DNA of 49,415 nucleotides from an uncultured Lachnospiraceae bacterium (GTDB taxonomy: Bacteria > Bacillota > Clostridia > Lachnospirales > Lachnospiraceae). Location: NCBI GenBank assembly GCA_949447165.1, contig CASTAV010000003.1, forward strand, positions 1 through 49,415. Reading direction: 5' to 3'. Below, one piece after another: positions 26,001 through 36,540 of the stretch (position 1 is the stretch's first letter; each line of letters opens with the position of its first letter). The position numbers were made by a program, and so were the translations under genes. The notes under the pieces were generated by a model. The model worked only from the letters and a program-made list of their open reading frames with translations, was not told where the DNA came from and did not search any database.

Positions 26001-27132
26001 TCGTTTCTTCCTTATTTGTCGCAGAATAAAGTGAATCTGTACTGCCGTCCGGCGAACCCCATCCGGCATACAACACCATATCCCCTTTAACTGGAGAACC
26101 AAAATCATATTTTGTTACAGCCGCAGACTCCATATACCAGCCAGTAAACCCATACATATCTCTTTCGGGGTCAGCTGGCGCTGCCACAGACTTGCCTTCT
26201 GCAACTTTCTGTATCTCATATACATTTTTTGAACCGTCGTTACAGTCAAATGTAACCTGATAACATGCATCCGAATCGGAAGAAATCTGTGTCTGCCTCA
26301 TCCATTTTGCATAAAGCGTTAGATTTCCTGTAACTGCTTTTGAAAAATTATAAACCTTTTTAAGCGCTTTATCAGTATGCCATCCTCCAAACACATAGCC
26401 GTTTCTTATCGGATCAACCGGTTTTGAAACACGCCTGCCTGCAAGAATTTTTTGCGAAGGAGGCATTTTCCCCACATCAGAAGCATTTGAAACAAATGTA
26501 ACTGTATAATACATAATAGGATTTGCCTCTTTTGTGACTATAATCTTGACTGTGACCTTTTTTCCCCCGGAAGTACCTGTCATGATAGCCGCGCCTTCCC
26601 TAACAGCTCTGACATTTCCTGATTTTGTAACTGTCGCTATGGAAGAATTATTAGATTTCCAAGTAATAGGCTGTATTTTTTTTGCAGGACTTGTAACTTT
26701 TGCTTTCAAATTTACCGACTGACCTGCATTCAACTGATAAACACTGTTGCAAAGCAAGCTGATTTTTTTTGTTTTATTATATATTGTAATTTTACATACA
26801 GCTTTAATTTTCGAATTATGTTTCGACTTTGCAATAATTTTAACAGTTCCGGCCCTTTTCGCTTTCACTTTCCCTTTTGGAGTGACAGTCGCAACTTTTT
26901 TGTTTGAACTGCTCCATGTTACAGTTTTAGATGCCTTAGATGGAATTGTTTTTTTTACTTTTAAAGTTCTGGATTCTCCTTTTACCATCATCAGCTTACT
27001 TTTATTTAATACAATCTTTTTTGGCTCATTTCGCCTTTTTGCAGCTTCTGTATTTGCCGGTAACAATGTTAAAACCATTGTAATTGCTAATAATGCCGTT
27101 ATTAACTTTCTAAACGTTTTTTTTAATTTCAT
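23062..27132 (-). CDS. large secreted multidomain surface protein (Big_2, Listeria-Bacteroides repeats, carboxypeptidase-regulatory-like domains, PPC-like C-terminal domain)
   Basis: The likely start is MKLKKTFRKLITALLAITMVL (signal peptide), preceded by an AAGGGG RBS, and the 34-aa ORF extension upstream is unlikely. Domains seen are Big_2 (VTWSSSNKKVATVTPKGKVKAKRAGTVKIIA), two Listeria-Bacteroides-type repeats (YTVTFVSN...GYVFGGW...LTLYAKW and YQVTFDCN...GFTGWY...LYAGW) and CarboxypepD_reg-like blocks (GHIKDSETGNNIKGVSVKI..., GIITNAVTGRPIEDVNLQL...). Confidence 0.75.
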   Translation of the reverse strand: MKLKKTFRKLITALLAITMVLTLLPANTEAAKRRNEPKKIVLNKSKLMMVKGESRTLKVKKTIPSKASKTVTWSSSNKKVATVTPKGKVKAKRAGTVKIIAKSKHNSKIKAVCKITIYNKTKKISLLCNSVYQLNAGQSVNLKAKVTSPAKKIQPITWKSNNSSIATVTKSGNVRAVREGAAIMTGTSGGKKVTVKIIVTKEANPIMYYTVTFVSNASDVGKMPPSQKILAGRRVSKPVDPIRNGYVFGGWHTDKALKKVYNFSKAVTGNLTLYAKWMRQTQISSDSDACYQVTFDCNDGSKNVYEIQKVAEGKSVAAPADPERDMYGFTGWYMESAAVTKYDFGSPVKGDMVLYAGWGSPDGSTDSLYSATNKEETIYSISGVEMNGNTLQATINTNSACALVVEFYEDTIGIDGSWEQEAVNACLQKEPITRVATQTPDYGEMICVSIPVETALTDYYLIRARLVELDGEGIEKNLCESFLCIDYSAKYARFEEKTVYDFPEEKVVNFDESTENNFGVFNENVKIINSGNMTNRLVVEDIFIEDEFESNTLDHTYTFYNPDNDLRGLRSGDPVYVTGTAYLFKIKEVINNSDGSITFTTASDVMLTDFYDVLKTDMKSEDSGIQPKIDIIDVETNFSSPTIGGDFSHELIEDTLKVSGTLSGSVQFSIQISYDAKLFAKDYFECNITTLLEGKLGIKGEVSKDNDGNDNNARRADKTEIPLPRVSVPTPVPGLEASINPKIPIEWEASGSISLDYTYSQKSGFQYNSYSGREDIKEKSQTVSLMAEGKAEIKIGPKLSTAIQFCKDVVKVEFSGHSGVKMTAEVEMGSDDVLNHAESKHACDLCVSGEIKWFADLNLKMTFAICDDALKGDIFNIKLFELEGYVNFLPEYPGICFWSLSNSRDSVYRGEKKYGFGPCKNKFYKTTIQVLNDKDETLTGIPVTIKREDGNTAYEKAGNSTYVEYLYDGIYIANANIDGKRVSKSFVTKGNAQTVILSPLSENGELYGHIKDSETGNNIKGVSVKISKDDMGVTAMETDELGNFSCSLPSGTFLIEITKDGYLPFSAYERIEDGEMTYMQEIELISGEGKGGFRGIITNAVTGRPIEDVNLQLRSGWNNTEGEIIKELKTDSDGEFRFGAKKAFGVIFGIPCGNYTITASKEEYLATSFNIIVWPGEDTDNPEQNGTMSPVMADDTYRIVLTWGENPSDLDSHVVGRFSDGEDFHVYYENMWEYDYESDLEVCNLDLDDITGYGPETITLNVNTDAPYYYYVYHYDGSGTLSTSGAQIKVYHGNDPVRTFHVPTGFGQEDYWNVFAIVDGKIISKNTLTFFSDLTYADSRRVSAPDTSKEDRALKN

Positions 27133-27248
27133 AATGTACCCCTTTCTGTTCTGCCAACGCTTGTAATCATTATCCCTTCTTTTACACAGGAGATTAAATA
27201 AAGAATCTGATGCTTTTTCCAATGCCAATCGCATAATATGCTCTCCTT

Positions 27249-36378: not shown

Positions 36379-36522
36379 CCGTCTTTTTGCTTTTCTTTCG
36401 CTGTCTTTTTTATTTTTCTTTCTCTATCTTTTTTGTTTTTCTTTCGCTGTCCTTTTGCTTTTCTTTCGCTGTCTTTTTACTTTTCTTTCGCTGTCTTTTT
36501 ACTCTTTTCGCTTTTTATGACT
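36379..36522. repeat. six imperfect tandem copies of a ~22-bp unit (gtctttttgcttttctttcgct) in the intergenic region upstream of the vault-like operon
   Basis: Direct reading: gtctttttgcttttctttcgct / gtcttttttatttttctttctcta / tcttttttgtttttctttcgct / gtccttttgcttttctttcgct / gtctttttacttttctttcgct / gtctttttactcttttcgct. Confidence 0.7.
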
Positions 36523-36540
36523 TATTTTTATGCGATTCCA

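Follow-up and report, generated by a model that had tools for sequence, protein, structure and literature searches.

Genes of the string and the linkage of its MVP homolog

Contig CASTAV010000003.1 of an uncultured Lachnospiraceae bacterium, analysed here over a stretch of 49,415 nt (the window), carries on its minus strand a compact string of genes in which a major vault protein (MVP) homolog stands next to proteins of proteolysis and, putatively, of transcriptional control. Seven head-to-tail open reading frames (ORFs) fill positions 27249-36297 and encode, in order, a YbjN-like protein, a P-loop ATPase resembling type IV coupling proteins (T4CPs), a ClpP paralog, a sigma-2-domain protein (p337), a Zn-motif protein (p193), a TPR-CHAT cysteine protease and the MVP homolog; the gene of a 1390-amino-acid (aa) surface protein follows (Table 1). 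An earlier note, made from the letters of this stretch, had read these genes as one eight-gene operon and, as its headline, as a possible vault-like proteolytic nanocompartment. Judged from the neighbourhoods of their homologs, the 9.4-kb string instead juxtaposes three separately inherited units, namely unit A (YbjN-like protein, T4CP-like ATPase and ClpP paralog), unit B (p337, p193 and CHAT protease) and the MVP gene.

Much of what the earlier note had described gene by gene was borne out. The string is indeed tightly packed on one strand, the ATGA overlap at 35782-35785 that joins the YbjN-like and ATPase genes was confirmed both by coordinates and by direct reading, and Pfam profile searches recovered the YbjN-like, T4CP-like, ClpP-like, CHAT and MVP homologies. 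The Walker A/TraG-D_C region, the ClpP triad and the CHAT H/C dyad were likewise recovered, their catalytic residues being conserved among relatives. As for the remaining junctions, their tightness stood, and the sizes as measured are a 26-nt overlap between the ATPase and ClpP genes (an identical overlap is found in another locus, L089), a gap of 1 nt between ClpP and p337 and one of 0 nt between p337 and p193. The start of the ATPase gene is fixed by the ATGA overlap together with a 438-aa public copy (P0136), while the p193 and CHAT genes overlap by 11-23 nt, according to the CHAT start chosen; the alternative extent of the CHAT gene, 29654-32314, begins at the ATG used in a public 886-aa copy. 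An 11-nt gap separates CHAT from MVP, and the MVP gene has its own ribosome-binding site (AAAGGAG) in front of it. None of the seven string proteins (0/7) has membrane segments. It is from spacing alone that an eight-gene operon may be inferred, and scans for promoters and terminators, with counts at or below shuffle expectation, say nothing on operon boundaries.

Table 1. Genes of the string and of the candidate extended neighbourhood upstream of it, with window coordinates.
Feature	Position	Strand	Assignment
YbjN/T3SS-chaperone-like protein, 171 aa	35782-36297	minus	unit A, gene 1; putative substrate adaptor
T4CP-like (VirD4/TraG-type) P-loop ATPase, 438 aa	34469-35785	minus	unit A, gene 2; soluble
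ClpP paralog, 197 aa	33901-34494	minus	unit A, gene 3
p337, sigma-2-domain protein, 337 aa	32886-33899	minus	unit B, gene 1
p193, Zn-motif protein, 193 aa	32304-32885	minus	unit B, gene 2; putative ZAS-type anti-sigma, putative CHAT substrate
TPR-CHAT cysteine protease, 886-890 aa	29654-32326	minus	unit B, gene 3; separase/Craspase-type
MVP homolog, 797 aa	27249-29642	minus	Pfam MVP_shoulder
1390-aa surface protein	23062-27234, or 23062-27132 from the signal-peptide Met	minus	last gene of the string
Candidate extended neighbourhood	39785-44566	minus	upstream of the string; Pfam assignments
Sel1/DUF4190 gene	39785-40429	minus	Pfam
257-aa gene	40411-41184	minus	extended neighbourhood
Radical SAM gene	41202-42317	minus	Pfam
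Ser/Thr kinase	42499-43392	minus	Pfam
136-aa membrane protein	between the kinase and CTP_transf_like genes	minus	extended neighbourhood
CTP_transf_like gene	43934-44566	minus	Pfam

The MVP homolog matches Pfam MVP_shoulder over residues 482-597 (E = 4.9e-21; 75.4 bits against a cut-off of 25), and eukaryotic MVP structures in the PDB align with it at E ~1e-14 over residues 428-757 only; clear homology covers the shoulder domain and the beginning of the cap helix. The signal for MVP repeats consists of one sub-threshold Vault_3 match (19.9 bits against a cut-off of 28.8), the PDB alignment running from residue 428 on. Unlike its eukaryotic counterpart, the protein belongs to a clade of gut Clostridia and jumbo phages, and has no TEP1/vPARP-like partners in the window, where domain scans found no TROVE or PARP gene. 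Bacterial MVP homologs have been reported in Myxococcales, Cytophagales and cyanobacteria (bioRxiv 10.1101/872010), and all three groups also appear in the set of MVP loci assembled here. The window protein is a new member of this already reported family, without special linkage.

The linkage of the MVP gene was examined by comparing all window operon proteins (tblastn) with 85 MVP loci, each extended by up to 10 kb to either side. CHAT, the T4CP-like ATPase, YbjN, p337 and p193 were found in none of them (0/85), and the sole ClpP lies 7 kb from its MVP gene in a 720-kb contig. Clustering of neighbours revealed no universal MVP partner, the commonest cluster occurring in 19/85 loci. Conversely, MVP is absent from the other 83 loci of the ATPase and from all four other CHAT or p337 loci. 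One of these ATPase loci, L093, comes from the same strain as the window and matches it at 100% identity from YbjN to CHAT; its contig ends inside CHAT, so that the adjacency of MVP is seen only in the window. The tie between MVP and two proteases that the earlier note proposed, naming such a neighbourhood survey beforehand as its refuting test, is thereby lost, and the notion of a vault-like proteolytic nanocompartment is not supported by the gene neighbourhoods. Probably the MVP gene is a passenger or belongs to a regulon, and its product is not a structural partner of the proteases; the surface-protein gene would be a downstream passenger or, possibly, a regulon member.

More than 6,000 MVP homologs were found, and species-representative genomes that carry one belong to Lachnospiraceae, Myxococcales and Saccharibacteria, among other groups. 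Of the relatives at 54-75% identity, some sit in 170-720-kb phage-like contigs, others in IMG/VR viral contigs of 190-201 kb or in mobile-element-like contigs, and one is found beside RtcB; at 37% identity, relatives turn up in the "uncultured phage" records LR756500-LR756503, of 462-735 kb. On the vault question the outcome is negative, though useful: the company that MVP genes keep in Firmicutes is that of jumbo phages and mobile DNA, and not of these proteases. In the jumbo/mega-phage-like contigs (170-735 kb; L001, L002, L004, L009-L014 and LR756500-LR756503), the genes near MVP include Band_7, DUF2828/DUF7788 (12/85 MVP loci), Metallophos, NADAR, ADP-ribosylglycohydrolase, RNA ligase, CCA-adding enzyme and a ClpP/AAA+ pair, which together look like a "vault plus RNA-repair/NAD" gene set.

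Unit A: the ClpP paralog and its T4CP-like neighbour

The protease of unit A matches Pfam CLP_protease at 4.9e-47 and falls below the cut-off of every NCBIfam ClpP model that it matched, scoring 130.7 bits against 308.6 for the equivalog TIGR00493; from these model scores it is classed as a paralog and not as the housekeeping ClpP ortholog. Its catalytic triad is intact, with Ser94 and His119 present in 69/69 paralogs and Asp170 in 64/69. In the PHROGs database, it was the only one of the string proteins to find a match (head-maturation proteases). The ATPase matches Pfam T4SS-DNA_transf (1.5e-36), TraG-D_C (4.5e-19) and TrwB_AAD_bind (4.5e-12), and its best NCBIfam match is the VirD4-like CD1115 family (234 bits, cut-off 250). 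It shares with type IV coupling proteins the nucleotide-binding domain, the TraG-D_C region and the Walker motifs; neither the GxGKT of Walker A nor the DD of Walker B varies across its relatives. Identity to plasmid T4CPs is only ~27%, and the ATPase differs from coupling proteins in having no N-terminal membrane anchor (the highest 19-residue Kyte-Doolittle mean is 1.15) and no relaxase or mating-pair genes in the 49-kb window. Its close relatives number more than 1,200 in gut Clostridia, single variants being found on 323 and 563 contigs, and a scan of viral contigs with the ATPase profile found no relatives.

What distinguishes this ATPase is its company. The earlier note had drawn attention to a ClpP-like protease beside a non-AAA+ ring-ATPase candidate, and the pairing proved to be strictly conserved: ClpP directly adjoins the ATPase in 81/84 loci, and in the other three the ATPase lies at a contig end. 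The ATPases of these 84 loci fall into 42 clusters when grouped at 90% identity and into 10 at 70%, and the ClpP neighbours are 43-58% identical to the window ClpP. ClpP is upstream of the ATPase in 68 loci and downstream in 6; as both gene orders occur, the adjacency has survived rearrangement. No AAA+ gene was found among the scanned window ORFs of at least 100 aa, and the conserved neighbour of ClpP is the T4CP-like ATPase. The gene on the other side is less constant. In L089, the slot after ClpP holds a 338-aa HTH_31 protein, which was considered as an equivalent of p337 and rejected when no homology was found; the gene after ClpP is therefore variable.

The YbjN-like gene is the third member of unit A in both clades of the ATPase loci. 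The window protein matches Pfam TY-Chap1 (E = 3e-7; 30.6 bits against a cut-off of 27) and YbjN (E = 3e-4), and the TY-chaperone family has been described as peptide-binding chaperones (PMC9503650). A homolog at 30% identity occupies the equivalent slot of L089-L091. In the main clade, a gene of ~227 aa upstream of ClpP is YbjN-like, Pfam YbjN being matched by 5/10 members (best E = 8.3e-6). An hhalign comparison between the two YbjN-like groups gave no signal, and the link between them rests on the Pfam YbjN matches of both. The surroundings of main-clade unit A loci (L092, L096, L099, L117, L140, L152 and L164) include ThiF+JAB, an AAA_2 ATPase, Endonuclease_NS_2 and a second TrwB-like ATPase, and in L140, L152 and L164 unit A adjoins genes of the RAMP superfamily (type III CRISPR); by gene content, these settings have a defence-island flavour.

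ClpXP and ClpCP work with adaptors such as SspB and MecA, and unit A resembles these machines in comprising a chaperone of adaptor type, a ring ATPase and a ClpP whose Ser-His-Asp triad is intact, as well as in sitting, in the window, beside a sigma-like/anti-sigma-like pair. It differs from them in that its P-loop ATPase belongs to the VirD4/TraG branch and not to AAA+, and docking on ClpP is inferred from adjacency. On the strength of that adjacency only, it is possible, if somewhat short of an even chance, that the T4CP-like ATPase and ClpP form one physical machine. Neither ClpP with VirD4/TraG nor MVP with CHAT or with ClpP was found described in full-text literature searches, and the pairing of ClpP with a T4CP-like ATPase seems not to have been described. 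If real, such a machine would constitute a new class of Clp protease, widespread in gut Clostridia, and the YbjN-like/T4CP-like/ClpP set, which is common in Clostridia of the human gut, could be the first case of a ClpP machine powered by an ATPase outside AAA+.

Unit B: a TPR-CHAT protease with p337 and p193

The protease of unit B matches Pfam CHAT (2.9e-38) in its C-terminal third, and its dyad, H705/C765, is invariant within the motifs HIATHG and SACxSG. An AlphaFold2 (AF2) model, at a pLDDT of 80.5, places the CHAT domain after a solenoid of helical hairpins 457 residues long, and at the level of this predicted fold the "TPR-CHAT" architecture is confirmed. Full-length relatives of the protein are scarce, with only three among 5.8 billion proteins. 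p337 in turn belongs to a family of 36 proteins recovered by an HMMER scan of 1.84 billion representative proteins. Searches of the PDB with p337 and p193 as single sequences gave noise only; the Pfam scan of the string returned no match for either, and the NCBIfam sigma matches of p337 are marginal. When a profile of 27 family members was used, the top PDB matches were extracytoplasmic function (ECF) sigma factors, over profile positions 30-169, with SigmaE at E = 3.4e-4 followed by AlgU/SigH and SigW; Pfam Sigma70_r2 was also matched by three distant family members (best E = 4.7e-7). Family profile and AF2 model concur on the sigma-2 domain of p337, which has an ECF-like region 2 and, after it, a C-terminal domain of ~200 aa. 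As the sigma-2 domain alone was recognised, and sigma-4 was not, it is called here a sigma-2-domain protein. The third protein, p193, bears at its N-terminus an H-x3-C-x2-C sequence, a ZAS-like zinc motif, and four homologs that are only 24-35% identical retain H2, H31-x3-C35-x2-C38 and C43 without change.

Five CHAT or p337 loci, the window included, were available for comparison, and the triad p337-p193-CHAT was present in 4/5 of them, always in the same order and thus with the p193 gene between the sigma-like gene and CHAT (window, L086, L173 and L175). For example, L086 has a p337-like (40% identity), a p193-like (31%) and a CHAT protein (42%), with a radical SAM gene in front, while L173 has, in this order, a CTP_transf gene (73% to the one at 43934-44566 of the window), a p337-like (45%) and a p193-like protein (37%) and the N-terminus of a CHAT protein (28%; partial). 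A more distant triad is that of L175-L178, which represent a common human-gut organism whose p337 homolog (P0293) is found on 159 contigs. Here, p337-like, p193-like and full-length CHAT proteins are 30%, 27% and 27% identical to those of the window, and in L175 a 91-aa DUF1292 gene separates the p193-like gene from CHAT. In the fifth locus, L088, the CHAT ortholog lies beside a Sel1 gene. No cas genes were found in L086, L088, L173 or L175.

The more distant triad also supplies a link between units A and B. After CHAT, L175 has a Sel1 gene, a T4CP-like ATPase gene (49.5% to that of the window) and RNase_T, so that the ATPase lies two genes from a triad whose proteins are ~30% identical to those of the window. 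Before the triad come FHA, a radical SAM activase, an AAA+ Clp-like ATPase, PP2C, a Ser/Thr kinase and a 175-aa gene. In L175:1077-9359, the genes preceding the triad include a Clp/Hsp100-type AAA+ ATPase of 639 aa, a Ser/Thr kinase of 1342 aa and a PP2C-like gene, and by this gene content the L175 triad may be under phospho-signalling control.

Several known systems offer precedents for unit B. In the Craspase of type III-E CRISPR, the TPR-CHAT protein Csx29 cleaves the sigma inhibitor Csx30 and thereby releases CASP-sigma/RpoE (PMC10028731). Craspase uses Cas7-11 and a crRNA array, whereas the window is without any cas gene, and the activating signal must therefore differ from Craspase's. 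The window CHAT protein is ~12% identical to Csx29, p193, as the putative counterpart of Csx30, bears the ZAS-like H-x3-C-x2-C, and p337, compared with CASP-sigma, has a long C-terminal domain of unrecognised fold in place of a recognisable sigma-4. In Myxococcus xanthus, the ECF sigma DdvS and a defence island are under the control of DdvA, in which a transmembrane Zn anti-sigma is combined with a TPR-CHAT domain on the periplasmic side (PMC11506125). There, Zn and TPR-CHAT domains are fused in one membrane protein with an incomplete His-Cys site, whereas the window has two soluble proteins and a His/Cys dyad that is intact and invariant. Finally, CalpL-CalpT-CalpS, a type III CRISPR accessory comprising a SAVED-Lon protease, an anti-sigma and an ECF-like sigma (bioRxiv 10.1101/2024.05.08.593097), is similar to unit B in that a signal-activated protease cleaves an anti-sigma and releases a sigma, and differs in that CalpL is a Lon and not a CHAT protease, is activated by cyclic oligoadenylate via its SAVED domain and is CRISPR-linked. 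As read from its genes, what is new in the triad relative to this class is that it is soluble and CRISPR-free, with a separate putative anti-sigma, an intact dyad and a C-terminal domain of unrecognised fold. It would show the logic of Craspase and DdvA as a free-standing soluble module without CRISPR, widening a newly recognised class.

Interpretation, alternatives and chromosomal setting

The explanation preferred here, which we hold to be evenly balanced between right and wrong, is that unit B is a protease-gated sigma switch, unit A an adaptor/unfoldase/peptidase machine, and the MVP and surface-protein genes passengers or possibly regulon members. Taken by itself, the view of unit B as a cytoplasmic, CRISPR-independent, protease-gated transcription switch is one that we modestly favour. 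In the rest state, p193 with its Zn motif would bind p337 and hold this sigma-2-domain protein inactive. Some signal would then activate the TPR-CHAT protease, which would cleave p193 as its putative substrate, and p337, once freed, would redirect RNA polymerase; the candidate output regulon comprises the neighbouring surface/adhesin genes (Big_2, LRR_5, lectin/YARHG and the 1390-aa protein) together with MVP. The YbjN-like adaptor, for its part, could pass the p193 fragment, or other CHAT products, to a T4CP-like hexamer and on to ClpP. ClpXP with SspB finishes the degradation of RseA and RsiW after site-1 and site-2 cleavage, and it is by analogy with this that unit A is conceived as a finisher of anti-sigma degradation. 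That unit A serves unit B at all is nonetheless doubtful. On the unlikely side, too, is the wider proposal that a soluble T4CP-like, non-AAA+ ring ATPase acts as a dedicated ClpP unfoldase/translocase with a YbjN-like adaptor, and is wired here to a CRISPR-independent TPR-CHAT/anti-sigma/sigma switch.

Several observations weigh against this explanation. The reading of p193 as an anti-sigma is plausible, and its basis is the motif together with sub-threshold scores: zf-HC2 is matched over residues 10-38 at E = 0.085 (13.4 bits against a cut-off of 22.2) and NCBIfam RsrA at E = 0.049, and a p193 family profile finds no anti-sigma in the PDB, where its matches are noise. What had earlier been called a zf-HC2 anti-sigma retains its invariant H-x3-C-x2-C, with a family assignment weaker than the one given. 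Similarly, the label "sigma-70-like" holds for a sigma-2 domain, found by family profile and AF2, and is weaker for the rest of p337, in whose C-terminal 200 residues no sigma-4 was recognised; p337 may not be a complete sigma factor. As to the neighbourhoods, L088 is without a p337 or p193 homolog within 7 kb upstream of its CHAT ortholog, and no ClpP adjoins the ATPase in L175. The triad is missing from 82 of the other 83 ATPase-ClpP loci, the sole exception being L093, from the same strain as the window, which implies that unit A has a function independent of unit B. The secondary idea of the earlier note, a regulated module of proteases and a sigma/anti-sigma pair, nevertheless gains support, in modified form, from the conservation of the triad across lineages, from the T4CP-like ATPase near the distant triad of L175 and from the strict ATPase-ClpP pairing.

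The switch explanation has to be weighed against others. One would make a single machine of all eight genes, with an MVP shell enclosing or scaffolding the CHAT and ClpP proteases under the sigma/anti-sigma switch. The shared strand, the short CHAT/MVP gap and the genuine MVP homology speak for it, as do near-identical single proteins in other samples (MVP 98%, CHAT 100%, ATPase 99%), but we consider it very improbable, in view of the empty neighbourhood survey (0/85 MVP loci with CHAT, T4CP, YbjN, p337 or p193 within 10 kb), the lack of MVP in the other 83 ATPase-ClpP loci and four other triad/CHAT loci, the closest MVP relatives in jumbo-phage or mobile contigs or beside RtcB, and the separate ribosome-binding site of MVP. 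Still less credible is the idea of a degraded integrative conjugative element whose coupling protein would be the ATPase and whose cargo would be the remaining genes. In its favour are the VirD4-like CD1115 match of the ATPase at 234 bits and the detectable homology of plasmid T4CPs; the idea was rejected on the sub-cut-off CD1115 score, the ~27% identity to those T4CPs, the missing membrane anchor, the absence of any relaxase, VirB4 or other type IV secretion system (T4SS) gene in the 49 kb, and the adjacency of ClpP in 81/84 loci, which is not a feature of conjugation modules.

It is also conceivable, although distinctly unlikely, that the adjacency is accidental, with A, B and MVP as unrelated cargo of a variable island and A and B uncoupled. 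Each unit does occur without the others in nearly all other loci, and the arrangement of genes around the triad varies, with CTP_transf, radical SAM or Sel1 genes as its direct neighbours elsewhere. On the other hand, the T4CP-like ATPase again lies two genes from the triad in L175 at ~30% protein identity, the 1-nt ClpP/p337 junction suggests co-translation, and the triad again has Sel1, kinase and radical SAM genes around it in the window, L088 and L175. Carrying rather more weight, if still unlikely, is an anti-phage or anti-plasmid abortive-infection island, in which the ATPase would sense DNA or protein, ClpP and/or CHAT would execute, and the sigma-like protein would switch on a defence regulon. 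This reading overlaps the preferred one, to which it adds a specific physiological role and a sensing part for the ATPase. Main-clade ClpP-T4CP pairs stand beside ThiF+JAB, AAA_2 ATPase and Endonuclease_NS_2 genes, and some by type III RAMP genes; PADLOC gave weak matches of the ATPase to mad8 (7.6e-8) and of CHAT to BovA (5.6e-7); known TPR-CHAT/sigma systems such as Craspase and DdvA are defence regulators (PMC10028731, PMC11506125); and the G+C content dips over ~22-46 kb. Yet no whole PADLOC system model was matched, the window has no cas genes, and its neighbouring genes are mostly surface/adhesin-like, which would fit an envelope regulon equally well.

Upstream of the string, several genes of the candidate extended neighbourhood (Table 1) have homologs beside the triad in L088, L173 and L175, and on this evidence the functional unit may be larger and modular. 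The Sel1 gene of L088, for example, is 33% identical to the window gene at 39785-40429 and 35% to the C-terminus of that at 40411-41184. T4CP-like ATPase, Sel1, kinase and radical SAM genes recur loosely around the triad, and MVP never does. The same-strand upstream run at 38708-45684 also holds a C-type lectin+YARHG gene and a second C-type lectin gene.

The remainder of the window is the ordinary chromosome of a spore-forming Firmicute, with TilS, SpoIIE, YabQ, ProRS, CCA-adding enzyme and MatE pumps, and domain scans of the window ORFs found no T4SS, relaxase or cas genes in the 49 kb. An 836-aa ORF at 14031-16541, between MatE and MMPL transporter genes, has no Pfam match at E <= 0.001. 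The G+C content is 0.45-0.51 in most of the first 22 kb, 0.38-0.43 over ~22-46 kb and 0.39-0.44 in the last 3 kb. The low-G+C stretch (~22000-46000) is rich in genes of surface/adhesin type (Big_2, Flg_new, LRR_5 and lectins), and the dip together with the surface genes is consistent with a horizontally acquired variable island. Finally, the intergenic region of 243 nt that lies immediately upstream of the YbjN-like gene contains a 22-nt tandem repeat at 36381-36500 (minus-strand consensus ~AAAAAGACAGCGAAAGAAAAGC; 5.4 copies, 86% matches). The 16-nt core of the repeat has four occurrences at the array and none elsewhere in the window, against a chance expectation of 0.07, and the array may serve the module as a regulatory binding array.

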